Positions 5,115-59,609 of a DNA stretch of 64,000 nt are shown one piece after another (the first letter of the stretch is position 1; the number at the start of each line of letters is the position of its first letter). Source of the stretch: Massalongia carnosa. Lineage: Eukaryota. Under the pieces are notes generated by a model. It saw only the letters and a program-made list of their open reading frames with translations. It did no database searches and was not told the origin of the DNA. Made by a program: the position numbers and the translations under genes. Location of the stretch: assembly GCA_965645245.1 (NCBI GenBank), contig OZ287072.1, forward strand, positions 2,728,001 through 2,792,000, written 5' to 3'.

Positions 5115-6806
5115 AAACAAGCAAAAGTCAAGTTTCGGTGACAAGTTCATGAATCATGCTGCGGAATTGCCGCATGCTGAATTGAATTTTTGGGTACACA
5201 ATCTGATCCCCAATCCAATCAATATAACCTGCACTGGTGGTGTTGTAATGATTCTCATCCCGTACGTGCGTAAATCCAACATCCATTGCATGGGACTGTG
5301 ACTGCCCCGAATCATAAATCTATTCATCATGTCTCGAACTCGTCCCAAACATCCCTTGTCGTCGGTCGCGAACCCCTCGTGTTCCGACTCGTCCTCCTCG
5401 TCGCTGTCACGGTTCTCGCTCAACCACTCCCTCATCTGTGACACTGAATCCGGCATTTCTGCTCGTTCCTCCTCGTCACTGTTCTCCCATGCATGCTGCA
5501 CTACCATCATGCGTGGCAACTTGATCATCCGTGACAATATGGATGGCTATCGATCGGGTCCTAACCATCGATCCTCGTCCACTCCCAACACCGCCACCGC
5601 GTTCACCGATGGGCTGTCTTATTCGGTGCGTGTGATGCGTTGATCCAGTAACGCAACGCAAAAATCCAAACATAATTCATCAACCCGACTCAATCCGGCC
5701 TCTTCATAAATGGGGCGGTCTGTCTCTTCAACATCTGGGATTTCCACCGCTGACGACGTTGATTCGACTTCCTCATTTTCTTCCTCGGCCCTTTCAATGG
5801 CGGTGCAAAATCCTCTCCATGCTCGTTTCTGGGCTGGCGTGAATCGATATGGCGGGCTACTCTCGCTGCCTTGGGGCCGCGCACGGGTAAAAAACATCAT
5901 TACCTGCTTCCATGGTCGACTGTGATCTTGGATGGATTGGTTGTCCATGTATGGTTGCAACGGCGTGTATTCCTGACAGCTGTGGCCTTTGCGCACTGTT
6001 TCCATGCGCACAAAAACCCCCACCCGGGAAATGATGGTTTGCTGACAATGTCTGATCATGCCATCAAATGACGTCCACATTTCACTGATGCTCGGTTCCT
6101 CTGCTGAGTCGGGTGGAGCCACTAATCTCATCAACGCCGGCCGTTCGAATCCTGTCAAATACTTCAACCACCCAGTTCTCTCCAACCATGGGTTCAACTC
6201 CGTCTGCTCTCCCTCCTGGATCATCCTTCGTTCTTTTTCTTTGACTGCCATCATAGCCTGACTCATGGTCTGTCGCGCTTGACTCTGCACGTTAATTCCA
6301 ACTCTCGCATTCGTTCTGGACGCCGATCCTGCATTAACTATCTCTATAAAATGTGATCCTTGACTGTGAACGAAAAACCACTGACATGTGACGATTCGCC
6401 ATGGCTTGGGAGTCGGGTTTGGCGTGAAAAGCTTATTGGGTCTTCCCTTTCGCGCTTGCGCCGACCATCCATGCTTTTGCTTGCTATGCATTCTCCTGCC
6501 GTTTTCATTGCGACAAATGTATTGACATCTAATCGGTTCCATTTCACATAATATACCATCGGAATACACCGGCAATGTACGGACGGGACTATCGATTCGA
6601 ATGGGCATCTTTAATTCAACAGGATTTTGAATCAAATTGGGCCATGATTGCGCCGACTCCGCGATGAGTGCGGCTTCCCTGCTTTTCATGCGATGCTGCG
6701 GGCCTTGAAAATGGGACTGCACCTGAGCGGGCCAAATGACGTGTTGACATTTGCGACACACGATCATTCGTCACTCGCTCAAATTTTCAATGAGTAATGC
6801 GCTCAT
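5115..6806 (-). pseudogene. DUF3505 (OrsD)-like zinc-finger protein, resembling the N-terminus of fungal telomere-linked/RecQ-type helicase genes; frameshifted and 3'-truncated
   Basis: IVCRKCQH...HFQGPQH, second C2H2-like C..C..H..H, NPWLERTGW, SPMQWMLDLRTYG, YPKIQFSMRQFRSMIH; family assignment is from motif recall. Confidence 0.65.
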
Positions 6807-16914: not shown

Positions 16915-17042
16915 CCATCTCACTGACTCGTCGTCGACCCCACGTTTTCTCGGTGCCCCTACCTCGCTGTCAGTGCTTGCTGCTTTTCCAATCTCACTGA
17001 CTCGTCGTCGACCTCACGTTGTCTCGGTGCCCCTACCTCCCA

Positions 17043-18055
17043 ATGACGAACACCCGTTCCCAAAGCACCTTGATGGACGACATAGTCCCCGACCCCCAGG
17101 AGATTGTCGGATTGACGCAGGCCCAATCCAATCAAATCTTCGCCCTACAAAAGAAGAAAGCCGAGGCGGAAGCGAAGGCGGCCGAGGCTGAGGCTAGAAT
17201 TGCCGAGTCCAAGGCATTGGTCGCCGAGAAGGAGGTGGAAAAAATGCAGCTAGAAATCGACTGCATGCGCCGAGAATCTGACGCCCGAATAGCGGCCGTC
17301 ATTCCTGCTGGCAAGCCGAGTCGTGTCGTCGGCGATGACGACGAGGACCTAGGTGAGATCCTCTCGAAGTAAGAAGCATAGCACCCCGTTTCGCGGGCCT
17401 ACCACAGGACGAGATCATCAAGATCTTTTCAAATAAATTCAAAGCCATCAACCTCTCCCGCCTCCGACACATGCACGGCATGCAATACGAGTCATACAAG
17501 GATCAAGACCGCATCGGCATCGAAGACGGCGCCTTGAGGTTGAGAAAGGCATCCGGGACCTACAAAGATTTCGGAAAGACAGTTCATGACGTCTGGACCG
17601 AGAGCTTCATCAACTACACCTCGATCATGGTCAGTCTTTTCGGGAAATCGAGTCAACAGCTTCACGCCACCATGTCGGCATTCCACGGAAAAATCCTCAT
17701 GCTGGCCAAGGTGTACGAGTGGCAGGAAGCAGTCCTCCCCCTCGCCATCGAAACCCACACCCACATCATCGCGTCTCAGCCATCCGACGCATCCCAATGG
17801 AAAATACCCGACGAATTCCAAGCTCGATTCTGCACCCCCCTCACAGTCCTACGCCGTCGCCGCTCACGATCCCCGCCGTCCCGACGACCGACCCCGAGAG
17901 GAGACAGGGCCGAGAGGGCCGAGAAGGCAGCGGGGGAAATCTGCGACAAGTACAACAGCGGCACCTGCACCTGGCCGTCGTGCTACCGACAGCACAAATG
18001 CAAATCGTGCGGCGCGTCTGGGCATGGCCAGAAGACATGCCCAACGAAGAAATAG
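17043..18055 (+). CDS. YR element 1 gag-like ORF (frameshift near 17362)
   Basis: Coiled-coil N-terminus, YEWQEAV, C-terminal CDKYN..C..C..HKCKSCG..H..C zinc fingers. Confidence 0.8.
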
Positions 18056-18100
18056 GGGGTTGGTGCAGGAGGCAGTAGAATAGCTTCAATAGCTGAATTC

Positions 18101-19804
18101 ATGACGTCCCATCCCTGCTTACCTGCACCAATCAGACCAAATACAATCCCTTCGTTTCAACTCGTAGACGCATCTCGTCAGCGTTTGAAAGACAGCCCAT
18201 CTCCCCTCGTACCGTCCGCATGGGCAACCCTACTTCAAGAGTATCCGGGCCCCCTCCGAGTCCATCTGCCCATGATCCTTCGTTTCGGAGTACAAATCGG
18301 ATACGAAGGCCCCACAGACATCCTTCGGATCGAACAAAATCTGACATCAGCGAATGAGGACCCGGAAACGATCGAGAATAAGCTTCAAGAGGACCTCAGG
18401 AAGGGCCGAGTCAGACGAATAGCCGCCCCGAGTCAGCCATTTGTGGCCTCCCCCCTCGGCTTGGTCCCGAAACATGACGGAGGATGGCGACGCATTCATC
18501 ATCTGTCTCATCCCAATCAAACATCAGTCAACGACAACATTCCAGAAGAGGCATCCAAATTACAATACGCCAGACTCGACGACATTATTCAATTGATTCT
18601 GTCAGAGGGCAAAGGTGCTGTCATAGTGAAAAGAGACGTCAAAGACGCCTTTCGAAACGTTCCCGTCGCACCTCATCATCAATGGCTTCTGGGTTTCGGA
18701 TGGAATGACGAATTCTACACCGAGACATGCCTTTCGTTCGGACTGTCGACGGCCCCGTTCATCTTCAATCTTTTTGCGGAAGGCTTTCATTGGATTTTGG
18801 AATCCTTTCTACAATGGAGATTAAATCACTATCTAGACGACTTCGTTGCAATTTTCCCATCCGAGACATCGTCAGAACGATTGCACCAAGAAACAAAAGC
18901 CTACAACATTCTCACCGACATTCTCGGCATCCCGAGAAACGACTCAAAAGACGCCGAGGGAACGACAGCGACAGTCTTCGGACTCGAGGTCGACACCATC
19001 AACAGTCTTATTCGTCTGCCAGCGGACAAGCTGGAAAAAGCGAGAATCATCACTACAAAGGCACTAAACGAGACGACAATCAGCCTCGGCGACATGCAGT
19101 CAATAGCGGGCTTCCTAAGCTTCTGCGCACAGGCAGTCAAATTGGGCCGAGTCTTCTTACGATTATTCTGGAATTTTATAGCCTCATTTCCCTCGGGCAG
19201 TCATCGTCGGGTCAAAAGAAGAATTCCCACATGGGTCAGACAGGATCTCATCTGGTGGAACAAACTTTTAGTGGACTTCAACGGTATTGTCTTCTTCGAG
19301 ACGTCAACACGAGACACGATCAAGGTGCATACGCATGCATGCCTCACGGGTCTCGGAGGCTATTTTCAACAAGACAACGAGCTCGTGAATCAAAAAAACG
19401 CATGTAGGGCCCGAGTCCTAGTCCTCAATCAGGAAGAATCACCGAGCATAAACGTCCGAGAAGTCGAGGCTATCCTTCTAATCCTTCAGAAATGGGCGCC
19501 GACATGGCGACATCGACAGATCCTTGTCTTTACCGACAGCAACACAGCATACACAGGATTCACGAATCTAACCCTCAAGGGACCGGCCAACGCGCCTCTA
19601 CGAGAAATACTGTCCATAGCTGCAAAGTGGGACATCGTACTACGTTGTCAATGGATCAGTGGCACTTCCAATGGACTAGCAGATGCCCTGTCACGTTTTG
19701 ATGATGAAAGATTGGCTAACTTTTGCCCTCATTGGCAGAACCCATACAATTCGATGAACCTCCCTCCACCTACCTATCCTCCACACCAGGATCAGCCCTG
19801 GTAA
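18101..19804 (+). CDS. YR element 1 reverse transcriptase/RNase H
   Basis: SPLGLVPK..WRRIHHLS, DVKDAF, LSFGL, YLDDF, FTDS, NGLADALSR. Confidence 0.93.
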   Translation: MTSHPCLPAPIRPNTIPSFQLVDASRQRLKDSPSPLVPSAWATLLQEYPGPLRVHLPMILRFGVQIGYEGPTDILRIEQNLTSANEDPETIENKLQEDLRKGRVRRIAAPSQPFVASPLGLVPKHDGGWRRIHHLSHPNQTSVNDNIPEEASKLQYARLDDIIQLILSEGKGAVIVKRDVKDAFRNVPVAPHHQWLLGFGWNDEFYTETCLSFGLSTAPFIFNLFAEGFHWILESFLQWRLNHYLDDFVAIFPSETSSERLHQETKAYNILTDILGIPRNDSKDAEGTTATVFGLEVDTINSLIRLPADKLEKARIITTKALNETTISLGDMQSIAGFLSFCAQAVKLGRVFLRLFWNFIASFPSGSHRRVKRRIPTWVRQDLIWWNKLLVDFNGIVFFETSTRDTIKVHTHACLTGLGGYFQQDNELVNQKNACRARVLVLNQEESPSINVREVEAILLILQKWAPTWRHRQILVFTDSNTAYTGFTNLTLKGPANAPLREILSIAAKWDIVLRCQWISGTSNGLADALSRFDDERLANFCPHWQNPYNSMNLPPPTYPPHQDQPW

Positions 19805-20549
19805 AACGCCTCGTCTAGCACGGACACTCGGCGGACACGAGAAAAGGGTACGGGACGGCGATCGACTCATACGAGGCATTCTGCGCGACGACGGGACGCA
19901 CGTCGTGGCCTGCAACAACCGAGTCCCTCGAGGAATGGCTAGCCGGTCGACTATACGGGGGCGGCACACCCAAGCAGGGAAAGATAAAACCAGAGACGGC
20001 AGCGAGCTACCTCGCCGGCCTCAGATCATACCATGTAGACCGAGGATACGGCCTCACCCCATTCGAGGGGCCGAGACTTCAATTGATGCTGAAAGGGGGA
20101 AAAAGGATCTTTTCTCAGACAAAAAGAAGACGCCTACCCATTTCAAAAGAATTACTGACAAAAATCACCAGTATTCCCGCTCATTCGGCCGAAGACCTCA
20201 ACATCGACGCGACATTCAAAGTTGCATGGGCAGGGTTCCTCAGACTCGGGGAAATCACCTACACTGTCGCCGATCGTAAGAAGACATCTTTTCAGAGATT
20301 GAAACCTACACGAGGTGACATCTCATTCGCCGAGAACGATCAATACGTGACATTACGTCTCAAAAGAAGCAAAACAGACACAAATCACTCAGGAGTTCAG
20401 ATAGTGCTGGCAGCGACCAATGAGAGCACTTGCCCCGTGACAGCACTACGGCGTCTTTTCAGAAATGATCCTCAGCCATCTACATCCCCGCTTTCGTCTC
20501 GGCACCGCATTCACCAGAGCCTCCGTCATAGCATCCCTGAAAAAGAGAC
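19739..20549 (+). pseudogene. YR element 1 tyrosine recombinase, truncated before the HSxR motif
   Basis: LV*HGHSADTRKGY, SYLAGLRSYHVD, AGFLRLGE, LKRSKTD, CPV; TAG at 19816-19818. Confidence 0.88.
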
Positions 20550-35626: not shown

Positions 35627-38600
35627 TTAACGTGGTTTGTTAGGGTGTCGTCGATAAAAGTCCTTCACCAGTTCTTCTGCATTTTCGAAGCCGTCAGCAT
35701 CATACCACGTCAGGTCTTCGTCAATTCCTTTCCACTTGACCTTGAACTGGATCTTTGGATATCGCTTTCGTGCGTCTAATATGTCGTCCAGTTCCCATTC
35801 GTCGTTACCTTCGACTACTACCGGTGGGGGTGGTTCGTTTATCTGACCAGGAAGGGGGTCGTCTGCAGCTTTTCGGAGCAAGCTGGTGTGGAACACATCG
35901 TGTATTTACATCGAGGGTGGAAGTTCCAGCTGACATGATGATCCTACCAATTTCATGACTCGATAGGGACCTATCATCTTGTGGTCCAGTTTCTTGCAAG
36001 CCCGCTCAGTCTTGATGTTTTTGGTTGACAACCACACCATGTCTCCTACCTCGTAAGATACTTCCGTCCGGTGTCGATCAGCCGCTGTTCTTTGCCTTTC
36101 CTGGGCTCGCTCCATGCTTTGCTTGACGAAGTTCCAGACTTTCTGCATGTCGTCTGTGATGGCCCTAGCTTGGGCGTTGGCCAACCTTTCTCTGGTGGAA
36201 GAAGCGGAAAGCTCTGCTGGATCGAAACTCATCCTCGGTTCATATCCTTTTGTGGCCATGAATGGTGAAAGCCCAGTTGTGGCCGACGGTGCGCTGTTGG
36301 CAGCGAACTCGGCCATCGGGAGAAGGTCCGCCCAGTCATCCTGATTATAGTTGGTGAAACTCCGGAGGTGACGTTCCATTTCTTGGTTCGCTATTTCGCT
36401 TTGTCCGTCTGTTTCGGGATGATAAGCGGTGGACAGTTTCGCCGTGATTTCCAGAATTTTGCACCATGCCTTCCATACCGCTGACACGAACTGGGGGCCC
36501 CGATCGGATAATATGCTGTTCGGGAGTCCGTGATAACGCCAGACGTTGTCGATGAGCAGCTTCGCTGTAGCCTCGGCAATTGTTCCTTCGTCACTACATG
36601 TGCATGGAATGTAGTGTCTTTCCTTGGACATCCGGTCCACAACCATCAGAATGGCGTCGTACTGCTCCTTGCTTTTGGCGAGCCCGGTCACATAGTCGAG
36701 GGTGATGTCTGACCATGGCTTGTCAGGTATGGGCAAGGGTTTCAGTAGCCCGTTGTATTTATCCCTTGGTGCTTTTGCCCGTCTGCAAACGTGACAGCTG
36801 CGAACATAGCGGCAAACTTCTTTGCCCATATTCGGCCAGTAGTAATTTCGAGAGATCGTCTGAATGGTCCTTGCTATTCCGGGGTGCCCAACCGCTATCT
36901 GGTCATGAATTTGCCGTACGACTTCGAGAATTGTTTCCTTGTTGTCCGGGACCCATAAGCGTTTTCGCTTATATAGCAGTCCATCTTTCACCGTACAATT
37001 CTTTGTGTCTGGCAAGGTGTTGTCCGCGGGAGTATCGTCGTCTGTCAGCGCTTTTCTGATCTTCGTACAGAGTTCATCTTCGAGGTTTTCCTGTTTTACC
37101 TTTTCGTCCAAAGGCTGTGGATCGGGATCGGTGGTAGTGTCAGTGTCGTCAAGGGCAGGAGTTTCATCTGATTCCGTTGCTTCTTCGATGGGTTGCGGTT
37201 CTAGTCTTTCCGAGGGCAGCAGCGTTTGGAGCTGATGCTGTTGTCGTTCGTCTTCCTCGTTCTGAGGTTTATCGTTTGGCCTTCGGGTCAGAGCGTCTGC
37301 TTTTTCGTTTTTCTTGCCCGGGCGATAGGTGATGACGAAATTGAACTCCGAGAGGAACTCCGCCCAGCGAGCCTGTCTTCTGGTCAGCTTTTTGGTGGAC
37401 ATGAAATACTCTAGACTTCGGTGATCAGTGAAGATCTTCACTGGTAGATCAGTGCCTTCCAGTTCCGGTTTCCATTGTTCAAAGCAGCGGATGATTGCCA
37501 GCAGTTCCTTGTCGTAGATTTCGTAGTTGCATTCCGCAGGGCTCATATTCTTGGAGAAGAACGCTACCGGGTGAAGTTCTCCGTCATCCCCCATTTGGGA
37601 AAGCACGCCACCATTGACATGGTCAGAAGAGTCGGTTTCCAAGTAACACTGCTTGTCTCGGTCGAAGTGTATCAGAATTGGGGCTTCGCCTATTTGTTTC
37701 CGCAGGGTCCGAAAAGCTTTTTCACATGCTAAGGTCCATTCAAAGATTCGTTCTTTCTTCGTCAGTGCGTTCAGGGGTTTGGCGATTTTCGAGAAGCCTC
37801 TGATGAATCGTCGATAGAAGTTGCAAAAGCCAATGAACGAACGAACCTCACGTAGACAAGTTGGGATTTCCCATTGCTGGATGGCCTTGACTTTAGCTGG
37901 ATCCATGCGAATGCCATCGACGCTAATGATCAGTCCCAAGTACTTGGTTTCCGTCACATGGAATTCGCATTTGTCCACGTCTGCTTGTAGTCCCGCTTCC
38001 CGAAGTTTGATCAGAACGAATCGGACGTGCTCCCGATGATCCTTCAGGTTCTTGCTATAAATCAGGATGTCGTCCAGGTAAGCCGTGCAGAACTTGTCCA
38101 AATAGTCGAATAACACATCGTTGATGTAGTGTTGCCAGGAAGCTGGTCCGCCAGAGAGTCCGAATGGGAGTACCTTATATTTATAGGCACCAAAACGAGA
38201 GTTGAACGTCGTCAGGTCTTCAGACTCTATGGCCATTCTGAGCTTGTGAAATGCTTGCCGAATATCAATCTTCGAAAAGACCTTAGCTTCCCTCAGCTGT
38301 GCCAGAGTTTCTTCTATCAGAGGTATGGGATAGCGGTCTTTTTTTGACAGTTGATTCAGCCTTCGATAATCGACACAGAAACGCAGGCCTCCGTTCGGCT
38401 TTTTGGCCAACAGAATAGGGGAAGCACACGCTGCGTGAATGGCCTCGATGAATCCTTTTCGAAGGTTGTCCTCGAGGTATTTCTTGACGAACTCCAGTTC
38501 TTTCTGTGACATGCTCCGAAGCGGACTATGTCCGTGATCTTTGTCTCCTTCCAGAATAATCCTATGATCATACGTTCGATGAGGTGCCAGAGTGTCAGAT

Positions 38601-39490
38601 GCTGTCTTGGAAAAGACATCTAGGAATTCGTGGTACTCTGAGGGAACTACCGTCTTCGGGTCAGTGGGTGGCTGGTCTTCCTTATTCAATTGGTACTCGA
38701 TGTCTTTCAAAGATATGGCGAATAACTCGACATTCTTTTGTTTGGAGAGCAGTCGGTACGCGGCAGCCCCTATCATCGCCATTTCTATCGGCTCATCTTC
38801 GGGAGTCGGCTTATCCTCGATTCCAGAGTCTGCTGGTCTTCCTGATAGCCCTACGTCAGCTTTGTTAGCTAACAAATCTGACGAACTGAGCTGATCTGGA
38901 CTAGTCCGCTCTGATTCCTTCGTGTCCGTTCTTGCCTCTTCGGGTCGTTTCAGTATTTTCATGATCGTTCTAGCCCCTTCGGACTCCCTCATCATCTTTT
39001 CCTCCTTGGGCAGCTGAGGAGCTCCAGGATGAGAACAATGACCAGGCCAGAAAGTTATCTTGTCTGTGGCCATGTCAATAATCACTCCATGCTTTCTCAT
39101 CCATGGTTTTCCCAATATCATCTTGTGTTGCCCCAGCTGCGTGATTAGAATAGGGGCTATTGTTTCCTTATGATTTTGTACGGTCAGGGTAGGGTAAATG
39201 GCATGCGTAATGTCTTTACCTCGTTTACCGTCGAAACCTTTGACTGCTTTCGGTCTTGTCAGTTTTTGAGGGGAGATCTGAAGCTTTTCACAAACTTCAC
39301 GCGCTGTTGATTCATCAATAAAAGCATGCCCAGTGGCACCGGTGTCCAATAGACCCATCACTTTTATTTCTTCGCTATTGCCCAGTCTACATTGTATGAC
39401 CAGGGGTTCATCGGTGAAAAAATCACCAGGTAAACAGCTCGACGAAATCAACACTGGTTCACCTCCATCTGCGTCTTTGATGGAGGTCAC
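35627..39490 (-). CDS. Gypsy-2 pol (PR-RT-RH-IN-chromodomain); frameshift near 35906 before the chromodomain
   Basis: LLDTGA, YLDD, TDSS, GHPG..CHVC, SDRG, GPY, EWELDDILD..VKWKG. Confidence 0.95.
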
Positions 39491-40743
39491 TCTTTTCCCG
39501 AGTCAGCAATTTCAGCGATTTTCTGCACTTTCGCTGGCCGACTCTTCCTCTTCAGCTCACAATCTCTGGACAAATGTCCATGCTCCTTGCAAAAGAAACA
39601 ACGACCTTCCCTGGTCAATCGTTCCTTTTCTTCATCCGTCATGTAGGAAGAGGACCTGGGGGTCGAGGCCGTGATGGCGTGACGGGGAGGGACATAGGTC
39701 TCGGTGGTGGAGGTTGTGGTCGTCGTGGTCGGGGCGCTAGAACTCGAGGCAGTGGTGCTGGGCCTTTTACTTTCCGCATAACGGTCCATATTGGCCTTGC
39801 TTCGGTCCAAGTCCTTGAGGTCCTGATACAAGCGCTGACACTTATGCGCGAACTCATACAGGTCGGTCGGTGCCTCGGCGCCGGTGGCCAATTGCCGATT
39901 CATTCCCCAAGAAAGCTTGTGCTTCAACTCGCTAATTAATGTAGCCTCGTTATGGTCCAGCTCAGCTGCCAGACGCTGAAACTCAGCCCAAAAGGTGTTG
40001 AAATCCTTGCTTCCTTGCCGAAGATACCGAAAGTCGTTCATCGCAGTTTGTTTTCGATTGGGATCGCCGTATGTGCGTTCCAATTGGTCAAACATTTCCT
40101 CGGCCGTCAGAAAGGGCTTCATCGCGCCTTTTCGAAGTCGGGGTTCTAGGTGTCCCATTGCTTCTCCTCCTACCCGGTTCTCCACGTATGCCTTCTTGAG
40201 CAGTTCCGACGGCATGTGGTCATCATTGGCTGCTAGTTTACTCATCATCTTTGTCAGCCAATGGTCTATGGAGATTTCCTTTCCGTCGGTGAAGATAGGC
40301 GGGTCAGGCAGTTTCATCGACCTCTTCCTACCGCCGTCGCTGCGACGGCTGCTACGGGAAGGGGATGGGGTTCGTGGGCGAGACGGCTCTCGCGTCTGTT
40401 CTCGGCTCATTTCAGTGCTGGCCACGGGGGCCCGTCCTTGTAATTCTCTTATTTCTTCTTTCTGGTAGGACATCCTGCCCTCCAACTGGTTCATTCTGGT
40501 TTGGAATCCCTCAGCCATATCAATAGCTCGGTTACCTCGTTCAACGGAGTCGTTGTATGCTCCCTTCAGGTTTTGAAGCATGTCGGACACGGCCTGAGGG
40601 TCGTGCTCCATCCATGCCTTCAATTGTCGGAGGTTTATAATCATCAGAGGCTCCGTTACCTCTAGTTCGTCCTCTGTTTCTCTAGTCTCGGGGATTATCG
40701 AGTCCCGGTGTCCTGGGACCTCGGTCCCGGTTGATAGTGCCAT
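39487..40743 (-). CDS. Gypsy-2 gag
   Basis: KLPDPPIF, LRQG, CFFCKEHGHLSRDC; ends in GGGAAAA, a likely -1 frameshift site into pol. Confidence 0.92.
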   Translation of the reverse strand: MALSTGTEVPGHRDSIIPETRETEDELEVTEPLMIINLRQLKAWMEHDPQAVSDMLQNLKGAYNDSVERGNRAIDMAEGFQTRMNQLEGRMSYQKEEIRELQGRAPVASTEMSREQTREPSRPRTPSPSRSSRRSDGGRKRSMKLPDPPIFTDGKEISIDHWLTKMMSKLAANDDHMPSELLKKAYVENRVGGEAMGHLEPRLRKGAMKPFLTAEEMFDQLERTYGDPNRKQTAMNDFRYLRQGSKDFNTFWAEFQRLAAELDHNEATLISELKHKLSWGMNRQLATGAEAPTDLYEFAHKCQRLYQDLKDLDRSKANMDRYAESKRPSTTASSSSAPTTTTTTSTTETYVPPRHAITASTPRSSSYMTDEEKERLTREGRCFFCKEHGHLSRDCELKRKSRPAKVQKIAEIADSGKE

Positions 40744-41990
40744 GTTATAAGCTGGTATCTGGTTATCGGTGTCTTGTATCTTGGGTTCAGTGTCAGTGGT
40801 CGTCTCGTCTCTACGATGTTTAATTCTCGGTGTCGGTATCAATATCTGGTGTCTTCGTGTTTGTCAGGTGAATTCTTTTATATCCTTCACATAGGATAAC
40901 AGTTTGAAGTTTCATCTTTATTGTAATGTTACGGTCTACCTAGAGGCTAGTCATAGGGACGCCATGAACGAAAAGAATAAAGATGAAGAGAAAAGAAAGA
41001 CTCGAAAGGTCTGACCCGTCCCTATATGCCAACGCGTTCCCTTGCCCTCATGCAGTACGGTCGCGAAAGAGTTTTCCGCGCTATCTCGTGAATCTCGTTA
41101 TCCGACCCGTAGGTGCTCGATTAGGTTTAGCTCCTAAACGCGAAAGGTGGAATCGTGACAGACTTTATCATTTAAATTTATCAAGAAGTAATAATTTCAA
41201 ATTTATCTAATCTCGTTATTCAGTGAGTCACTGTTGAAAATATGACTTTGGCTATATCATCAGCTAGTTCGTGTCAATCTCGTTATATTGCTACTAAGTA
41301 TGTTTGGGCTATTGCTCACAGCCCCCGGCCTCGAGAGGGGGACTCGATAAGGGCCTTGCTGTCTACTAATGTAAGACCCTCTCGCAGGCCTTGGGCTGTG
41401 AACAGACTCCCTCTATCTAAGCGACAGAAGAACTGGAGTGGGTGGGTGGGAAAGAAAACGTTGCAAACAGTGCTATCAAAATGCTATGCTTTTTGATTGT
41501 CTTGAGATGTGAGATGATGAGGGATACCGTCTGGGACCTCCTCTTTATATATCTTCTTCCTATTCTCCTTGTCCTACTCTACCATCCCAGTATGCCCCAT
41601 CAACGCGGCCCATAGCAAGGCATACACAAATCCGAAACCTAACTGTCGTCCGAAGGATCGATGCGGTGCTAAGATCTCTATGCCGTGCTGAGACATCCTT
41701 ATGGTGCTGAGACATCTATGCCGTCCGAGAGATCCATGCGGTGCCGAAATCAAAGCGGGAGCTGTCTCGATTAACGACGCACTAGCTCTCAGCATAGCCG
41801 AACTAGCTAGTTCGTGTCAATCTCGTTATATTGCTACTAAGTATGTTTGGGCTATTGCTCACAGCCCCCGGCCTCGAGAGGGGGACTCGATAAGGGCCTT
41901 GCTGTCTACTAATGTAAGACCCTCTCGCAGGCCTTGGGCTGTGAACAGACTCCCAATCCCCAACATGGAACGACCCGCTTGCGGTGTTGT

Positions 41991-43046
41991 TCAGGACCTA
42001 GTGACTGGATTGTGAGGTTCCGTGGGTAATGTTTGAAGGCGTTTTGAGGCGTTAAGAAGGTAAGTGGGGTGGGTTTGTATGTAAAGCTTGTATGCGTCTG
42101 ACTTCCATCTTCCTAGCATCTGAATCTCGTCTTCGGTGAGTCCTGCCCGTCGCGCTGTTGTTGCCGCACCTCTTCTGAACGAGTGGCCAGAGAAATTTCC
42201 TATATAGCCCAAGTTCCTTAAGGTGGATTTCATCGCTGTTGTAATGTAGTCTCGAGTGAAGGACTGACCGTTTTTAAAGAGTGGTGCGGCCGGAGAACTT
42301 GGGAATCGCCTATATAAATTTGTAAGAGAAGCTAGTGCACAAGCAACATCGTTGGTAGCCGCAATTGTCAGTGTTATGCCTCGGCGAAAGGGATCGGTTT
42401 TGGAGACTGGTAGAGAGAGCTGTAGGTGATCTGCTTCGAACCTAATAGATTTTCTGGTGAGGTGCCATTGATCAAAGCTTGGGTCTAGTACATCTTGCGT
42501 TGTGTAAGTAAATTCTCCGGCTCGTAAGAAGCCTGCAAACGCTAAGCAGTACGCCGCATGTAAATTTGCGCCTTTCTCTTTCGTTTGATCAAGACGACTT
42601 AGCAATTTGATTAAGATCTCTCTAGTAATTGGTAACCTTTCACGTTTCTCGGCTTCACCGTTCTTTCGCTTTATGCCAGTAAGGATGCGATCTAACACCG
42701 GGTGATGAAATACGTCGAGATTACCGAGGCCCATATCTATCTGGCATGATCTTATGCCCGTCAAGTAGCTCTTAATAGTTTTTGGTTGCAGGCGTCGTTC
42801 ACCCAACGCTGCGATCCACGAAGACAGCGTCCGGATGTTGGCTGGAAATGGTGGCGCGTTGAGGTTTACCCTACAGTAAAGAACGTATCCCTTTCTTGCC
42901 GTTGTGTATAAAGATCTTGTCTTAGTGGCCAGGCCCCACCAGAGGTATCGTGCTGCGATTTCGTCTAGAGGTACCTCACTGTACCAAGATGGGGGTGGAT
43001 CGCGTCCTATATTGCTGAGGGTAGAGCCTGAAACTGAGGGATTTTG
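41991..43046 (-). CDS. Ngaro-2 tyrosine recombinase (frame opens without AUG)
   Basis: RYLWWGLA..TRSLY, AGFLRAGE, SKTD, GHSFRRGAA, LGRWKSDAY..Y; catalytic set complete. Confidence 0.93.
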   Translation of the reverse strand, partial: QNPSVSGSTLSNIGRDPPPSWYSEVPLDEIAARYLWWGLATKTRSLYTTARKGYVLYCRVNLNAPPFPANIRTLSSWIAALGERRLQPKTIKSYLTGIRSCQIDMGLGNLDVFHHPVLDRILTGIKRKNGEAEKRERLPITREILIKLLSRLDQTKEKGANLHAAYCLAFAGFLRAGEFTYTTQDVLDPSFDQWHLTRKSIRFEADHLQLSLPVSKTDPFRRGITLTIAATNDVACALASLTNLYRRFPSSPAAPLFKNGQSFTRDYITTAMKSTLRNLGYIGNFSGHSFRRGAATTARRAGLTEDEIQMLGRWKSDAYKLYIQTHPTYLLNASKRLQTLPTEPHNPVTRS

Positions 43047-44623
43047 TCAGCCAGTTTCTTCAAAAGTCCTCTAGACAAGAGATCAGCAATATAATTTTCT
43101 TTGGATGATATCCATCGCGCTTCTATCTGGATATCATGTAATGCAGCTAGCATTGTAATTGCCCGCAGGGCATGCATTGCTTGGCCTCGTATAGAGGTTT
43201 TATTCACTCCTTTCGTGACAGCGTAGCTATCACAATAGAGGATTAAATGACTACCCTTGCATATAGGTAGCCACTTTTTCATAGCTTGAAGAATTGCTGT
43301 CATTTCTTTGACGTTGATATGCTTTGCCCTAAGGCGCGTAGTAAAGCGTGTGCTAAAAGCCTGCCGGGCTGCTTGTATATTATGCAAATTTTGATCCTCG
43401 CTGAGGATAAAGCCGCCCATACCATATGAGCCGGACGCATCTGTCCATATTCTCATAGTATGTCTAGTACGGTTGAGCAGATGTATGCCATTCCATTTAG
43501 GTAGGAAATGATGCCACCATAGAAGATCAGCCCTCATGTCCTTGTTAAGATGGATTAGTTTAGAGGTTACGCTTGCCGTAGCATTGAAAAGACGGCGTAG
43601 AAAGGCTCTTCCTGGTTTTACCACTCTGGCTGCAAAGCATAAGAATCCTAGAAGAGAGTCGAGTTCCTTCCTGGGTATGGCTTTTTTATTCAAAGCTGCC
43701 GATACTAGGGTCTTTGCTTTTAGTAACTTTTCGGAAGGCAAGCGTGCTTCCATGAGCGCGGTATCGATTTCAATGCCGAGGAAATCGCAAGTCGTTCCAG
43801 TTCTGTTCTTTTCGAGCTTGATTTTCATGCCAAGATCTTTACAAATGTTGTGGAAAACTTGATCAAACTTTTCAGCATCTGGTCCGGTGCTGACTATTAT
43901 TAAAAAATCATCCAAGTAATGAATAGCGTCTTTCCAACCACAGTTGTACAATATCCAGTTGATACCCTTCGCGAACAGATCAAAAAGGAACGGCGACGTT
44001 CTCAGCCCAAAGGGTAAGTATTTATCCATCCAAAAGGAATCCTGCCACTTGAAACCTAGTAACCACCAATCGCTTTTTGCTACTGGTATGTGGCGAAAAG
44101 CGTCCGCAAAGTCTCTTTTAATAAGAATACACCCTGGCCCGCGTTGCTCAATCAACCTAATGGCTTCGTCGAAGCTGGTATATTCCAGGGAGCCCCAGTC
44201 TTCCGGTATGTGGTCGTTGACTGAGCTACTCTCCGGATACGATAGATGATGGATTCGCCGCCAACCACCGTTAGCCTTTGGTACAAGGCCTAATGGGGAA
44301 CATATAAAGCAAGAAGGAATGTTGTTGACTTTCTCCAACCGATTACTAGCTATTTGTTCTTCGAGGTCATTGGTAAGAACTTCCGGTGCCTCATTTGCAG
44401 AGGCAAGATTATCGCTAATAATGAGTTGATGTGGTCCTGTATAACCAACTTTGGCACCGTAGGTGATGATATCGATAATTGTTTGTGTGTAAGTGCGATC
44501 CGGGTGATTGGCCAAATGTTTCTCCCAGCCTTCTTTCTTCAATGGGCCCGGTGGGATCTTTGTTAGATTGTCCGTCAAGGTGTATGGAAAGGACTCCGCG
44601 ATGGATAAGAATGGGGCGGTTAG
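43007..44623 (-). CDS. Ngaro-2 RT/RNase H (in frame with gag, no N-terminal AUG)
   Basis: SPLGLVPK, DFADAF, LPFGL, YLDDF, TDAS, KE, CDS, NYIADLLSR. Confidence 0.94.
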   Translation of the reverse strand, partial: LTAPFLSIAESFPYTLTDNLTKIPPGPLKKEGWEKHLANHPDRTYTQTIIDIITYGAKVGYTGPHQLIISDNLASANEAPEVLTNDLEEQIASNRLEKVNNIPSCFICSPLGLVPKANGGWRRIHHLSYPESSSVNDHIPEDWGSLEYTSFDEAIRLIEQRGPGCILIKRDFADAFRHIPVAKSDWWLLGFKWQDSFWMDKYLPFGLRTSPFLFDLFAKGINWILYNCGWKDAIHYLDDFLIIVSTGPDAEKFDQVFHNICKDLGMKIKLEKNRTGTTCDFLGIEIDTALMEARLPSEKLLKAKTLVSAALNKKAIPRKELDSLLGFLCFAARVVKPGRAFLRRLFNATASVTSKLIHLNKDMRADLLWWHHFLPKWNGIHLLNRTRHTMRIWTDASGSYGMGGFILSEDQNLHNIQAARQAFSTRFTTRLRAKHINVKEMTAILQAMKKWLPICKGSHLILYCDSYAVTKGVNKTSIRGQAMHALRAITMLAALHDIQIEARWISSKENYIADLLSRGLLKKLADKIPQFQALPSAI

Positions 44624-45671
44624 TCATTGCCTTGATGGGAGAGGCATCGAATTTGGGTTAGAGGGTTGATTTTTTCCATTTGTACAGTCCATCGCCCGAT
44701 GTTGCTTTCCACATTTCTCACACACATGTTGGAATCTACAATATACGGGACAGTCTTTGCCATAGTTGTATTTCTTACAGATAATCTTTTCGCCTGAGGT
44801 TTTGAAAGCCGTAGAATTATCGTCCGGTTTTGCAAAGTAAGCGGACGGTTTCCGCACAAGATGCCTTTCCAAGGAATGGTCCATTTCTTTCCATCCATCC
44901 GGGTTGTCAATCCCGCGAAAGGCTCGAGATTTGTGGAAATTCAAATGAAAGATGCGAACCGAGTCCCAGGTGTAGAAGGCGTATAATGATAGAAGATGGT
45001 CCTGATAAGCCATGAAGGCTCTCATCAGGTTTATCTGGAGACCGGGGTGTGCAAAGTGTAGTAGTATCATCCAATATACCCCGAGACATCGTATCAAATG
45101 AACTATCCCTTTGATATCTTTTAAGGAGCCATCTTCTTCTCTCGTGGCGATTTCCAGACCTTCTCCGAGTTTGACGTATCTAGAGTTGGTTTGAACTCCG
45201 TCGATTTCGGTACATAGCTTCTGTATACAATGAGTTTGGTCGATGCGGTGGAAATGATGTCGGAAATAATAGGGAAGGCTGTTGAGCTGAGGCTACTGGC
45301 CCAGGGACCACGTCTCGGGCACGTGCTTGTTGGGTTTCGATATCCCGCCTAAGACTTACTCTTTCTCTTTCCTCGGCTTCCCTGCGGGACATTTCGCGTT
45401 GTGCTCTAAGTTCAATAATGTCATCAGGGGTGCGAGAACGGGTTTCCGGTATAACAGGCCCTTGTGAGGAGGAATTAAACGCTGAAGATGGAAGAGGAGA
45501 AGGTTGAGGATGGCTTTGAAGGGTTGCCGTGCTGTCTTGTGAGTCGGGTACTTCGACGTCTGGGTTGGAGTTGGCTAGATTTGCCCTAGCTCTAGTTCTA
45601 GTACGGGCTTGAGTGCTGCCTTGTGTGCGGGAGGTAGGCTTGGTGATTCTGTTGGAGATGCGGGTGGCCAT
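44624..45671 (-). CDS. Ngaro-2 gag-like ORF (frame change near 45230-45290)
   Basis: ATG 45671; YTWDSV..FH; CKKYN..C..C..HVCEKCG..H..C. Confidence 0.8.
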
Positions 45672-46801
45672 TTTTGGAGGAGAGGGATTTGAATAGAGTA
45701 AATTTAAGTGTAGTGGTTGTATAAATTTGAATTGGGTGAAAAGAAAACGTTGCAAACAGTGCTATCAAAATGCTATGCTTTTTGATTGTCTTGAGATGTG
45801 AGATGATGAGGGATACCGTCTGGGACCTCCTCTTTATATATCTTCTTCCTATTCTCCTTGTCCTACTCTACCATCCCAGTATGCCCCATCAACGCGGCCC
45901 ATAGCAAGGCATACACAAATCCGAAACCTAACTGTCGTCCGAAGGATCGATGCGGTGCTAAGATCTCTATGCCGTGCTGAGACATCCTTATGGTGCTGAG
46001 ACATCTATGCCGTCCGAGAGATCCATGCGGTGCCGAAATCAAAGCGGGAGCTGTCTCGATTAACGACGCACTAGCTCTCAGCATAGCCGAACTAGAAAAT
46101 TGGAGATTACTAACAGATCTTGATGATTAAATATTCGACTTATTGGTTACTTTAGTCTTTATTCGTCAACCTTTAGGCAGTTGCCTTTATCTATTATACG
46201 TCTTGTCGTTATATTAGTCAGTGCAACCTGCATCTCAACAAATAATCGTCACTCTGTCTTTACTTCTCGTCTCGATAAGCTTTATTATTCTCTTTACCTT
46301 GACCTTTTAACAATTCAGTCATATATTATCCACTTTATCCTATCTTTACGTCCTCTTTATCCGTCGTAGAGTAATATTGGTTGTTCAGCTGCTCTCTTTA
46401 CATGTCGCATCGTCATACAATGACTTCGTTGCAGCTTTTGTATCTTGCGTATAATATATCTATATAATGCGCAACCGTCCTTGGATTTCTTATCGAAGAT
46501 AATGTTAAGCACGTTCAGTTCTCGAAGATCAACAGTATTCTACATTATTACGTGGTAATGATTCTCATTATTCTTTGAATTGATTATTATCTATTACTTG
46601 ATGACGAGAAAACCTGCTTAGAACATAATGCCTATAGAGCCCAAATGTTAGAAGACCAACTACTACTGCGACGACATATTAAGCTCATCTGTTCTGGAAC
46701 AACAGTCACTCTTAGACGGAAGCCCTTCCTTATCCTACTAAAAAGCGCATGCGTTTAGGAAACCAATTCTCTTTAATGCTAACATAATACAATAGGGTAC
46801 G

Positions 46802-53458: not shown

Positions 53459-56400
53459 CTATTTGCTTATCTTTCTTCTCTTTTCCCCGCTTTTCGACGG
53501 GTTCGATGGGTATGTCCGATGATAAATCCTAATTAGGTCTTGTGACCCTTCCATGTCTTCCAATGACAGCCATTGATTGTCCGAATCCGGATATCCTTTC
53601 CATTTGACCAGATATTGCAGTTTCCCGTATCGGATTCGACTGCTCAGTACCTCCTCCACCTCGTATTGCTCCTCGCCGTCGACCTCGATGGCCGGGGGGA
53701 GCTCAGGACCTCTTGCTGAGTCTTCATTGTATGGTTCTAGAAGGTTGACGTGAAAGACGTCGTGGACGCCTTTTAGTAGCGGCGGTAGTTTCAGACGATA
53801 CGTTTGCTTTCCTATAACCTTGGTTATCTCATAAGGACCGTAGTATTTATAGTCCAGTTTCTTTGAAGGCCTAGTAGATGAGATGTTTTTAGCATTAAGT
53901 AGTACCTTGTCCTTGACCCGATAGGTCATCGGGGTGTGCTTCTGATTGTAGTACTTAGCTTGATCTGATGATGCTTTTTGCAGCAGAGTTTCGAGACGAC
54001 GTCTCTTTTCGAGCGTTTCTATCGCCCTGTCTTTCGCTGCTGGCGTTTCCTTTTCGGTTTTCGTTATTTCCTCCTCCCACCTCGGTGCCTCTCCGAAAAG
54101 GGCCTCGAATGGGGACATTTTCAGTACGCTATGCCGACTGTTGTTGTAGGCGTATTCTGCCATCGGTAGCCAGTACACCCAGTCGTCTTGTTGATAATTG
54201 ACGTAGCAACGAAGGTACTGTTCCAACGTCTGGTTTTGACGTTCCGTTTGCCCGTCGGTCTGGGGGTGAAAGGCCGTACTGTAATTGAGCCGTACCCTCA
54301 GATGATAGCAAAAGTTGGACCAGAAATTCGAGGTGAACAGGCTTCCCCTGTCGGTCACCAGCGAGACCGGCATTCCAAAGCGGGTGAAGACTTCTTCTAC
54401 CAGGGCGTCGGCAAGGTTCTCCGCCGTCCAGTCTTTCCTGGCCGCGATGTATCGGGCGTACTTTGTATACCTGTCAACAATTACTAGTATTGCATCAAAA
54501 ATAAGGGTGCGGCGGATGCTCGGGGGCAAATCCGTAATGAAATCTAGTGTCCAATTCTGTCTTGGACCCAGAGGTACTGGCAAGGATTCTAATTCGCCGA
54601 ATGGTCTATGCCTGACTGCCTTGACTTGATGACAGCGAGTACAGGTATCAACGTAGTGCTTGACATCAGGGACCATTCGGGGCCAGTAGTATTTTCGTTG
54701 GAGAAGTTCTGTCGTTCTGAGGGTACCGAAATGCCCTGCGTTTGGATCATCATGATTCCTTTTTAGCAGTTCGTTTCTCAGCAATCCAGGCGGTATATAC
54801 CACCTGTTATTTCGACAGAGGATGTCATCTTTGAGATGCCAGAGCCCGTCTTCTTTCTCATCGGCAGGAAGGTCGTCTCCTGCGACCCCCTCCATTCCCT
54901 CGGTGGGCTGCCTCTGACCATCCCTTTCCTGATCCAGCTCTCCCTGCAACGACGATGCGGCGAGGGGCCGGCTTCGCTTCGCAAGGTGATCAGTCTCTTG
55001 AAGAATACGAAGGACGGTGCTGAGTTCCAGGGGGGGCGATGCAAAGGCAGCTTCCGACTCAGTCACGTCTAGGACGCGCTGGCTTAATGTGTCCGAGTCC
55101 CTCTCGGCCTCGACGAGTCGGAATCCCACAGGCTTGGAGTCAGCCGCGGTCTCGTCTGACTTCGGAGGGGCAGGCTTTTTGCCCTTTTTCTTCCCCCCCT
55201 TGGTCCTTCTCATTGCCGCCTGGATATCAGGATCCGACGCCCGTGCAGCATTCGGGGTGGTATCCATCCCTACGACAGCAATTGAGGATTCCGTGCGCGT
55301 CTCCGGTGGAGTATTGTTGAAGACGAAGGATTCCTTCGGCCCTTGACCGACTTCATCTGAAGAAACTAATGCGTAGGCTCTCGTTTGATATACCTCGCTT
55401 TCCCCCCCGACGACCCCCTGACCCAGCAGCGTGGCCTCGTCTTGACGATGCAAGCCTGGCCCTGCGTAGTCCGGGCGTCGCGAGGGTCCATCTGCCGGAT
55501 TATTCCGACCAGGTCTGTACTCGAGCTGTAGGTCTAGACTGGATAGTCTTTCCCACCAACGCGCTTCGCGTCTAGATAGTGTTTTGGTTGTGAAAAAGGT
55601 GCGAAGGTTTCCATGATCGGTGAGCACTTTGACGGGGAAGTTTGCCCCTTCAAGATAGTGTCTCCAATTTTTGCACGCTTCCACGATTGCTAACATTTCC
55701 TTCTCCCCGACCCCATAATTGATTTCTGCAGGGGTCATTTTCCGGGACCAGAAGGCGATCGGGTGCCATTGGCCCGTTTCTTCGACTAGTTGACTGAGGA
55801 TTCCTGATAGGGCGAAATCTGACGCATCCGTCTCGAGCTTAATACGCCTTGCAGGATCGAAATGCAGCAACATTGGGGCGCTAGTGAACGCGATTTTTAA
55901 CGCCTCAAAAGCCCCCTTTGCCTTGTCCGTCCACACGAACTTCCCCCGGAAACGGCCTTTGTCCCCACCTTTCAGCAAGGAAGTGATTGGCGCCACTATG
56001 CGCGAGAATCCTTTGATGAAGCGTCTATAGAAGTTGGCGAATCCAAGAAAGACTTGAACTTCTCGATGAGATTTCGGCTCCGGCCATTGCGTCACCGTAA
56101 AAATCCGTCCTGGGTCCATGGCGATGCCTTTTCGGGAGAGTATGTAGCCCAGGAAGTCCAGCTCGTACGCGTGGAAGATGCATTTCGATAACTTTGCGTG
56201 TAGTTTCCATTTCCGCAATTGATCCAGAACCCATCGAACGTGGCCCGAATGCTCCTCTTCCGTCTTGGAGAAGATGAGGATGTCGTCAAGATATACTACT
56301 ACGAACTGGTCGAGATTCTCTTTCAACACCTCGTGAATGAACGCTTGAAAGGAGGCGGGGGCATTGACCAGTCCGAAGGGCATGACTCTATACTCAAAAT

Positions 56401-57560
56401 GGCCATATCTACATCTGAAGGCCGTCTTCCATTCGTCCCCGGCGGCGATTCGGAGGGTGTTGTATGCGTCCCTCAAATCCAACTTGGTGTAGATAGCCGA
56501 CCCGCTGACGATGTCGAACAGCCCCTGGATCAGGGGTAGAGGGTACTTATTCTTAATCGTAGCAGCATTTAGGGCCCGATAATCGACACAGAGACGTAGA
56601 CTACCATCTTTCTTCTTTGTGAATAGGATGGGCGCGCCTAGTCGTGAGGTGCTATGGGTAATATACCCTTTTGCCAGGTTGTCGTCGATGTAGTCTTTTA
56701 GGGTTTCTAGTTCGGTGAGGGAGAGGTTATACATGGCCCGGGTCGGGGGTGGTTCGCCTTCCAGATTGATTTTATGGTCGTGGGGCCCTCGTTCTGGTAG
56801 CACTGAAGCTTTTTCATTGGAGCAGACGTCACTGTAGGATTGATACAGAGGCAGAAGTTTATTGCTAGACGTAGAGATGGCACCAACTATTGACTCCAAC
56901 TCCGGGCTCCCACCGAGCACTTCCCGAATGTCTATTAGGAATGCGTCGACGCCCTCGCATTCGCAGATGTCAAAGATCTCCTGCTCACTCACCATTGCCA
57001 CTACTGGGAGATTGATACTTCGATGAGGGGTTTCCTCATCGCCTACAGTGACCCCGGGACGTTCCCCTGGCAGGTCATCTCGTACTTCACCCTCGATGAG
57101 GTGGCTTTCATGGATTATCCTCCTTTCGCGCCAGCCGATGGATGGATTGGCATGACCCAACCAGGGCAAGCCCAGGATCATGTCCACCCCATACATGTCT
57201 GACGCGACGAATGCCTGCTCGGCCACTCGCTCAAGACCATTGTCATCAACAACCCCGACGCGCAGGGCATGATCAAAATAAGTCTGGAAGGGGGTTCCAT
57301 CGAGAGTTTTCAACCCAGATGGTGGAGGGGAGCCGGGAGGATCTCGAACACCTACCTCATTTAGCCAGGTTTGAGCGATAAGGTTCCAAGTTGCTCCGCA
57401 GTCGATCATTGCTCGGACACGATGCTGACTGTTGTCGTAATATAGGAAAACCGTTGAGAAGAGGTGGCGGCATGGGGATTTCCTCATTTGCCGGGCCAAT
57501 ACGACGGAGGCAACGTCTATTGGCCCCGACCTTTTCCCGGCCGGCGGGACGATCCCCGCG
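53459..57560 (-). CDS. Gypsy-3 pol (PR-RT-RH-IN-chromodomain), open
   Basis: MIDCGA, YLDD, TDAS, GHFG..CTRC, TDRG, GPY, EQYEVEEVL..YLVKWKGY; start is approximate (frameshift from gag). Confidence 0.95.
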
Positions 57561-58620
57561 GCGACGGCCGGGACCGACATTCGAATTGAAGGTGCCCCAT
57601 TTTCCCGCAGTTCCAGCAATCCTTATCCGACCAATTTCCTTTTGGTCTCGTAGGGGGCGGGGCTTCTTGATCTTGCTGATCTTCCTGATCATCCAGCTTT
57701 CTTTTGTTTGATTGGTGGTTCGGATTAATCACGGGTGCCTGTGGAGCGTCAGCGGGTCCATCTTCTTCAGGTTTGGGGGTTGAGGAAGATTGATTGTTTC
57801 GATTTTGATTCCGGCTTTTATTGAAAGTCTTCTTCCATCCATCGGGTTTTGGCTCAACCCTTTCCGCAATCCTCACCGCCTCGACCAGTTCCGCCCTGGT
57901 CGTCCCCTGACTACCCGCCCGGATCACAGCCGTCTTCAAGTAGTCGTGCACGCTGTGTAGGAGGTTGGAATGCTTCTGCATTTCCGTGGGGGGTTCGGGG
58001 AGTTGAGCTTCTAGGCTTTCCAGATATGTGACAAAATCGGACACGGTCTGCCCCTGGAATTGGCGCAATTTCTTCAGTTGTCCCCCCAGATCCATCAAGC
58101 GTAGATGCTTCGGTTTGAGCTTTTCCTGGAGGAAGTCAGCAAAGATTTTCCAGGTGAGCTCACCTTCCGCCGCCTTCGTCGTCGCTTCCTTCTCACGGTG
58201 CCAATCGTCGGCAGGGGCTCCGGATAGATAGTTCTCGGCGTAGAGGACCTGTGCCGAGGGCGATTCGTATGTGACTGGCTTCTGCAGAAAAGTTCTCTTG
58301 CAGTCACGTAGGAATGTGTCAAACGCCCGCTGATTGTCGCCGGCGTAGGTCGTCGGGTCTACGGAACGAAGAGACCTTTCCAGGGCCAGCGGGTCGACGG
58401 GTTTGGTTCGATCCGTGAGAGTGGGGAAGCCGGCGGCCTTTTCCTTCTTCAGGTCCTCCAGCGTTTTGGCTAGGTGCGCCTGCTTCCGTTCAGCCTCAAT
58501 GGCCTCAACTTCTCGCTGCATGTCTGCCATGGTGGCGGAAATTAGGGTCTCGTCCGGGTTAGGTGTCGGGTTCGCCCCGGAAGCGGTGGACGAAGACATA
58601 TGCGATCTAGTTAATACCAT
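57517..58620 (-). CDS. Gypsy-3 gag
   Basis: LRQ..Q.VSDF, CWNCGKMGHLQFEC; GGGAAAA near the end, a likely -1 frameshift site. Confidence 0.93.
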   Translation of the reverse strand: MVLTRSHMSSSTASGANPTPNPDETLISATMADMQREVEAIEAERKQAHLAKTLEDLKKEKAAGFPTLTDRTKPVDPLALERSLRSVDPTTYAGDNQRAFDTFLRDCKRTFLQKPVTYESPSAQVLYAENYLSGAPADDWHREKEATTKAAEGELTWKIFADFLQEKLKPKHLRLMDLGGQLKKLRQFQGQTVSDFVTYLESLEAQLPEPPTEMQKHSNLLHSVHDYLKTAVIRAGSQGTTRAELVEAVRIAERVEPKPDGWKKTFNKSRNQNRNNQSSSTPKPEEDGPADAPQAPVINPNHQSNKRKLDDQEDQQDQEAPPPTRPKGNWSDKDCWNCGKMGHLQFECRSRPSPRGSSRRPGKGRGQ

Positions 58621-59609
58621 AGGTTGAAATGTCGAGGTAATGAGGAATGACCAACGGGCTCCCTAGAAGGTTGGATAGATCAAAGTGTAAGACGTATGCT
58701 TCTACTCAGAGGGCGTGTTGGTCACGTGAATGGGGTGTCTCATTAATGTATGTTATTGATCTATGCCCTTAGAACAAGGTGGGCATCGACCTCTTTATGC
58801 TACAGACGTGTCTCCCCCTAAGACTCCCTTATCGGATAGCCCCCAGCTATCTGATTGGTCCAAATGGCTCCCGGCCCCTTTGGGCGGTTAGTGCCATCCG
58901 ACATGGGTTTCCAGCGGTCCCCCTCGCCAGCCGTCCCCCTGAGACGGCATGTGGCCGACAGCGGAATCAGCCCATTAGGGTCGGGCCGGGTTCGGCGGCC
59001 GAGTCCATGCTGATGCCCCTTTTCCGTATCCTTCTCCGTAGTCTCTATGGCAGGTCCTGAAACTCCTTTATTTCACATATTTGTTGCCCTGTCTCCTTAC
59101 CTATAAGGGTATCAGTGAACATATCCCAGAAAAAGCCTCGTTTTTTCAACTTATTGGCCGAAACCAACGTCACTGATAAATCAGGAATATAAGCTGTTCC
59201 TTCGAATAATAGCTCCCTTTTCTGGCCATTCAATAGGCCATTTACCCTCATTGAGCCATGAACATGGATTTTTATCTCCCCGTCGGGGGTGTCCACCCAC
59301 ATGTCTGACGAAGTTGGGGTTATCTCTCCTATAAACCGTGATTTATCATAGGTCAGAGGGTAATCGCATCCAGAGTCAAAGATGACGCTTTTATGCAAGG
59401 GGTTATTTGCCTTACATGTAACGTTCGCAAACGAGAAGGATTGACTTGGCAATTTAATGTGATTGCCCTGATTATGTTGATCATTCTATGCTTTTTGGGA
59501 GCTCTTTTTGACTGACTCCTCAGTTATTCCATCTAGTATATTGGTGTCGGTGACCTTCTTAATGGCCATGAGAAACCGAATGTTTGACGGAATTTTCTGA
59601 CGTATTTCA

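Follow-up and report, generated by a model that had tools for sequence, protein, structure and literature searches.

In the 64,000-nucleotide stretch of Massalongia carnosa DNA that was analysed (the window, to whose positions all coordinates refer), a young Ngaro-type retrotransposon closes its gag gene with the stop codon UGA followed by CUA. We consider it quite probable that readthrough of this stop yields a 923-residue fusion of Gag with reverse transcriptase (RT) plus RNase H, Gag itself being made by termination and a fusion of Gag with the tyrosine recombinase (YR) by splicing. In the model that we propose, unspliced RNA would start in repeat A1 and be translated from the gag AUG; most ribosomes would stop at the UGA and release a 384-residue Gag, and a small share would decode the UGA, in its CUA context, by a near-cognate tRNA and continue to the end of the 923-residue Gag-RT/RNase H. 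The readthrough signal would be no more than the short context itself, unaided by local 3' structure, and the fusion would probably stay whole and work uncut, because the element encodes no protease, an enzyme that elements of this kind lack according to PMC3783388. Excision of a 2291-nt intron, whose donor is at gag codon 152 and whose acceptor overlaps the end of RNase H, would join gag codons 1-151 in frame to YR. We infer the occurrence and rates of readthrough and of the long splice, together with the inserted amino acid, from what is observed in the DNA, i.e. the layout, its conservation, the frames and the splice phases.

The element occupies 41264..46095 on the minus strand and is of Ngaro type by its anatomy and domains, following the definition in PMC8547959. 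It has the split direct repeats of Ngaro, A1-ORFs-B1A2B2, with A1 at 45740..46095, then gag, RT/RNase H and YR, then B1 at 41807..41954, A2 at 41451..41806 and B2 at 41264..41411 (all minus strand). CTAG stands at both bounds (41264-41267 and 46092-46095) and twice at the B1-A2 joint. Insertion is at CTAG in 15 of the 15 copies examined, a strict 4-base target for this family. A TATA-like stretch near 45835, within A1, is a putative promoter. The recombinase gene (41991..43046, minus strand; codon 105 is its first ATG, and its 3' exon is predicted to begin at 43033) overlaps the end of RNase H and encodes a tyrosine recombinase, not a DDE integrase: the HSFRRG and LGRW..Y motifs are seen in the translation, and Pfam Phage_integrase is matched at E 5e-4, below the curated cut-off. 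The focal family is very young and has been spreading recently, as 48 copies with the exact gag start are present in the genome and 15 copies show few positional differences from one full focal copy. Copies L186-L199 likewise differ little from each other and carry no heavy C-to-T load, which suggests that RIP has acted little or not at all on the family. A viral contig scan returned no relative. Among its neighbours in the window are an ORF with an OrsD (PF12013) domain at 5619-6770 and two gypsy-type elements at 35906-40863 and 53459-58662, whose gag and pol lie in different, briefly overlapping frames and which are candidates for ribosomal frameshifting. Taken with the other elements, the OrsD ORF suggests that the host is a filamentous ascomycete.

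The junction of gag and RT reads AGG CAA TGA CTA ACC GCC on the minus strand, and the candidate readthrough signal, TGA plus CTA, lies at 44621..44626. The TGA (44626-44624) is in frame with RT/RNase H, as the original prediction had stated, and a 538-codon frame (43007..44623, minus strand) follows it directly. Within this frame, Pfam detects RVT_1 at RT residues 153-286 (E 3e-14) and RT_RNaseH (E 1e-7), and profile comparison aligns it to solved RTs of the caulimovirus type, of foamy virus and of Ty3; neither approach gave a methyltransferase or protease match in the 538 codons, and there is no room for a methyltransferase after RNase H, because the frame ends at 43007, inside the start of YR. 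The first in-frame AUG of RT had been placed about 185 codons in, after conserved RT motifs. The distance needs correction, to codon 199 (44029), and the placement holds, since Met199 falls within the RVT_1 match, between D171 of KRDFADAF and YLDD. The aspartate of KRDFADAF at position 171 is of the type that forms the first catalytic Asp of RT; a start at Met199 was rejected, as its product would be without this residue. The prediction also called UGA-CUA a leaky stop context of fungi and animals, in agreement with the readthrough of metabolic-enzyme genes described in PMC4207609, where CUA after UGA suffices for readthrough in Ustilago maydis and replacement of the stop by UAG or UAA lowers it.

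This junction is strictly kept within the family. Its 50 nt are identical in 30 of 30 focal loci and also in 15 of 15 longer focal loci, which partly overlap the 30, and in 26 of the 30 focal copies examined an intact gag of 384 codons runs into TGA CTA ACC. Contigs of four runs of unrecorded type, which cannot show expression or splicing, contained no joints, and the stop was unchanged in them. Local folding after the focal stop is no better than that of shuffled sequences (z +1.24 over 147 nt, z +0.06 over 90 nt), and a signal that consists of the context only fits this; none of five TGA CTA sequences, the focal one included, falls below z -0.7.

Comparison with other families of the same genome suggests that the sequence at the stop is itself under constraint. 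Forty loci were fetched from the 84 non-focal RT matches in this genome, and gag ends in TGA CTA in 36 of them, in TAG GGG in three, which belong to the second family discussed below, and has no stop in one. The view that the layout is more than chance is thus borne out. Besides the focal family, three further TGA CTA families can be distinguished, with RTs 56-63% identical to the focal RT. Among these four families, third positions of four-fold degenerate codons match at only 24-35% (11/45 to 17/48), which is near saturation, 6 of 114 conserved columns share one codon across all four, and not one of 16 conserved Leu columns has an identical codon in all four. Since synonymous sites are saturated and no Leu column shares a codon, the TGA CTA common to the four families is conserved at the nucleotide level, beyond what the protein needs. 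Protein similarity among them begins at the codon directly after the stop, and the first Met of RT lies at position 17, 38, 110 or 199.

The same layout was followed beyond this genome. Of 433 candidate stretches in a metagenome scan, 364 were confirmed, and the best 79 of the 364 loci were combined with six loci from this genome and five from genome bins labelled as bacterial (L101-L105, on short contigs of bins labelled Acidobacteria, Bacteroidetes and Kribbellaceae, and probably mis-binned eukaryotic DNA). Clustering at 80% RT identity gave 57 clusters, of which 13 were dropped as no gag zinc finger was detected. In 29 of the 44 kept, at least one copy has a single in-frame stop and is open into RT, in 14 this is not so, and one is fused. 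Most exceptions fall into one 15-row clade of a quick tree with SH-aLRT support only. For the 31 clusters outside this clade, the first member of each was counted, whatever its state. In this set, drawn from the best 79 of 364 loci plus 11, RT is in frame with gag in 29 of the 31 and open in 27, and over 2334 linker codons the three frames hold 8, 44 and 91 stops. The gag stops are TGA in 22, TAA in seven and TAG in two. A C at +4 follows 24/31 gag stops vs 16/39 recombinase stops of the same element set (Fisher p 0.003) and CTA follows 11/31 vs 0/39 (Fisher p 4e-5), both p-values being too optimistic because the clusters share ancestry and the near-identical L102 and L130 are counted twice. 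With this genome left out, 24 of 26 clusters are in frame, 20 of 26 have +4 C and 7 of 26 have CTA. CTA recurs in separate branches, after linkers of 0-127 codons. Frame and stop context are therefore non-random across the survey, the outcome that the prediction had anticipated for fungal relatives. Two counts speak against readthrough, as the exact TGA CTA is present in only 9 of the 31 clusters, and TAA, used in seven of the 31, is the poorer readthrough stop (PMC4207609). Local structure after the stop is seldom evident, with 3 of the 29 open clusters of the survey set (best 79 of 364 loci plus 11) below z -2 over 90 nt. Loci L101, L122 and L168 represent TAA CTA families with open linkers of 104-127 codons and RT frames of about 1000 codons that overlap the entire recombinase, and in another family (L117, L126, L161 and L174) gag is followed by TAG GGA, and neither an early Met nor a simple hairpin (z -0.1) is present.

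A second, distant Ngaro-type family is present in the window at 16918-20500, inserted beside a Copia-like element; the genome holds at least 24 matches to its RT. Its window copy has a gag frameshift near 17365 and is seemingly cut at the 3' end of YR; gag is open in the copies L090-L092. On the plus strand at 18053..18135, the gag stop, TAG GGG (18053-18058), is followed at once by a strong hairpin (z -3.91, 0 of 200 shuffles, computed on copy L090). In murine leukaemia virus, gag and pol are likewise in frame around a stop, there UAG-G with a downstream structure, and the second family resembles this structure-dependent type; the local 3' structure that is present in the TAG family is absent in the focal family (z +1.2). 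The claim that two recombinase-bearing families of the window share the gag-stop-RT layout under two different signals therefore stands as regards TGA CTA and TAG GGG, whereas the TAG family is not AUG-less, because an in-frame ATG lies at codon 16 after its stop. The two families are relatives and not independent trials. The splice signals described below are found here as well, with a donor at 17353 and a branch at 19716.

The recombinase would be supplied by splicing. The gag-like ORF of the focal element (44627..45671, minus strand), which ends in a Cys/His zinc-finger motif, is frameshifted in the window copy by a 107-nt deletion that leads to a premature stop at 45182-45180. At the gag column of the predicted donor, 26 of 38 aligned sequences have Gly, and 25 of these 26 write it as GGT plus purine, compared with 10% of RT Gly codons; most members of the 15-row clade are without this Gly donor. 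Upstream of the predicted 3' exon, a branch point CTGAC (43050-43046) and an acceptor CAG (43036-43034) lie at 43034..43050 on the minus strand, in phase 1 of the YR frame, and a CTRAY branch followed by CAG in this phase occurs in 36 of the 42 clusters with a usable YR match; a phase-0 site is found in one and phase-2 sites in eight of the 42, each of which also has a phase-1 site. In an intact copy, joining donor to acceptor removes 2291 nt and leaves 498 open codons that end as YR. The conserved gag donor and the in-phase acceptor thus predict a spliced Gag-recombinase mRNA. Four genomic copies lack gag segments bounded by GT-AG. In three of them (L191, L193 and L194, on different contigs) exactly the 139-nt GTAAGT...TACAG intron-like segment present at 45221..45359 (minus strand; gag nt 313-451) is gone and gag is shortened to 114 codons; they are apparently retro-copied spliced RNA, and in this reading the genome itself records splicing of the element's RNA. 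The fourth is the window copy, where the 107 nt missing at the deletion scar (45215..45221, minus strand) are readable as GTATGG...CCAAG; one reading places the start of the deletion at the conserved phase-1 donor in the gag Gly152 codon, and a 3-nt microhomology fits it equally. Retro-copies of a gag-YR or gag-RT splice were not found among the focal copies with both markers, a test with little power. The defining Ngaro paper of Goodwin and Poulter from 2004 reportedly describes spliceosomal introns in some elements of the DIRS and Ngaro types, so part of the splicing picture may already be in print.

Three other ways of accounting for the junction have to be weighed against readthrough. RT could be made apart from Gag, by reinitiation, from a near-cognate start (ATC at codon 8, or TTG and ACG at codons 16-17), or from a sub-genomic RNA that an internal promoter would supply, like the promoter that Candida Tca2 has at its junction (PMC2194720). 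Loci L114 and L115 indeed have a true ATG 12 codons past the in-frame stop, at exactly the position of the focal Leu after the stop; in 14 of the 27 open clusters a Met is found no later than the first position of the conserved RT part, and three families have ACG, ATG or ATA as codon 17. Of 120 homologous proteins, 26 carry I-x-E-x-[FL]-P-Y, and in 22 of these 26 a Met is called at the focal Leu position, which is also a point against readthrough, in calls where TTG and GTG are written as Met too (TTG in P0001). Moreover, an ATG overlaps the focal TGA. This ATG is out of frame, opens an ORF of 70 codons and is not conserved, because the base before the stop is T (TTGA) in the three other families. 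Coupling of stop and start through AUGA was rejected on the same two grounds of frame and conservation. CUA does not count among the near-cognate starts, conserved residues precede codon 17, and in 10 of the 27 open clusters the first Met lies at RT position 68 or later. Separate production of RT would also leave the kept frame, the open linker and the +4 context unexplained, and we regard it as unlikely.

Removal of the stop by splicing deserves attention since a sister clade appears to do exactly this. In the 15-row clade (with L119, L134, L144, L150, L154, L165, L172, L177, L181-L183 and L164), the TAG lies within GTTAG[CTG], which resembles a 5' splice site and spans the gag stop in 11 of 12 clusters. 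It is followed by candidate phase-1 acceptors, and the linker, seemingly unconstrained, is open in only 2 of the 12, a count that also weighs against readthrough as a general rule. The fused L164, at least 124 nt shorter than 10 other clade members measured, looks like an intron-less form. This clade probably splices its gag stop out, and the gag-stop-RT layout is not universal, because in one well-supported clade the linker is not kept open. In the focal family, the corresponding splice would use the strong phase-0 donor GTAAGT at gag nt 313, the branch TGACTAAC, which contains the stop itself, and an acceptor GAG at RT codon 10, and would fuse gag(1-104) to RT in frame. The three copies without the 139-nt segment demonstrate use of this donor with a different acceptor, the focal context TGACTAAC is a perfect branch-point match, and the phase fits. 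Splice acceptors of the GAG type are rare, however, and the cut would hit the conserved Ile8 and Glu10; because there is no AG between the stop and RT codon 10, no splice can remove the focal stop and keep I-x-E-x-F-P-Y whole. In other families, the branch-like base behind CTA is not fixed (A, G or T) and the AG either is missing or lies in a different phase, and C precedes the stop in only 4 of the 29 open clusters. In 20 of the 27 open clusters, the focal one included, no donor and YAG acceptor remove the stop. None of 47 copies with both markers shows the gag-to-RT distance expected after skipping of the stop, which is a weak test because no copy of the predicted gag-YR splice is seen either. 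Taken together, we hold such a splice to be very unlikely in the focal family. That the stop is a neutral leftover of an ancestral fused or adjacent ORF pair, with CTA kept for Leu or by chance, is scarcely credible, for although the position after the stop aligns with hydrophobic M/I/V/L in relatives, the codon identity at the junction is kept despite otherwise saturated synonymous sites, and the family is amplifying while its near-identical copies still carry the stop, which means that RT has to be produced somehow.

We incline, with reservation, to a broader picture: fungal Ngaro elements would make three proteins from one gag start, the recombinase fusion by a long splice of deep conservation, and sister lineages would have swapped the means of bypassing the stop, with short UGA/UAA-C contexts in most, UAG-G plus a hairpin in one family, and in another clade an intron that has the stop inside its 5' splice site. 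Readthrough and splicing would thus be two answers of sister clades to one problem. The very young and intact focal family offers a testable expression map, in which the leaky stop would set the ratio of Gag to RT and the splice would supply the recombinase. If this is true, RT acts as an uncut Gag fusion, and gag-pol readthrough is carried beyond LTR elements and retroviruses into the DIRS order. Gene callers would then truncate the RT and YR proteins of these elements.

Like the Ngaro elements of fungi (Muszewska et al. 2013, PMC3783388), Cafeteria (PMC8547959) and Xenopus (PMC9210276), the focal element has the order A1-ORFs-B1A2B2, with gag, RT/RNase H and YR; it shares with them the lack of methyltransferase, protease and DDE integrase and a YR that overlaps the end of RNase H in another frame. 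Ngaro was found almost only in Basidiomycota in a 2013 survey of fungi, with one element in filamentous ascomycetes (PMC3783388), the group to which the present host seems to belong. The ORFs of the Xenopus Ngaro are described as overlapping (PMC9210276), unlike the in-frame stop layout seen here. No mention of an in-frame gag stop, of readthrough or of a gag-YR splice in Ngaro was found in passages of these three papers, and no report of gag-RT readthrough in Ngaro or DIRS elements in the literature searched, which included passages of PMC7192593 and PMC12440569; nor did the literature examined give an account of how the start-less downstream ORFs of tyrosine-recombinase retrotransposons are expressed. 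The recoding signal is thus a known one, new for an element order in which no description of it was found. Host enzymes with UGA CU(A) have the same short motif and likewise need no structure, but their extensions are short and peroxisomal, whereas the focal stop precedes a 538-residue enzyme (PMC4207609). Candida Tca2 has gag, stop and pol in frame as the focal element does; in yeast, its UGA junction on its own did not bring about readthrough, which calls for caution here, and the promoter inside it is cryptic (PMC2194720). In fission-yeast Ty3/gypsy elements, a conserved TGA CT lies between gag and pol and readthrough has been proposed; Tj1, Tcry1 and Tosmo1-3 have, like the focal element, a single in-frame TGA, with CTA or CTG behind it, and the stop is cited as essential for Tj1 transposition (bioRxiv 2022.12.06.519325). 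Those elements are of the LTR type and include protease and integrase in the readthrough product (bioRxiv 2022.12.06.519325), whereas the predicted product of the focal element is an uncut Gag-RT/RNase H, with the integrating enzyme outside it.
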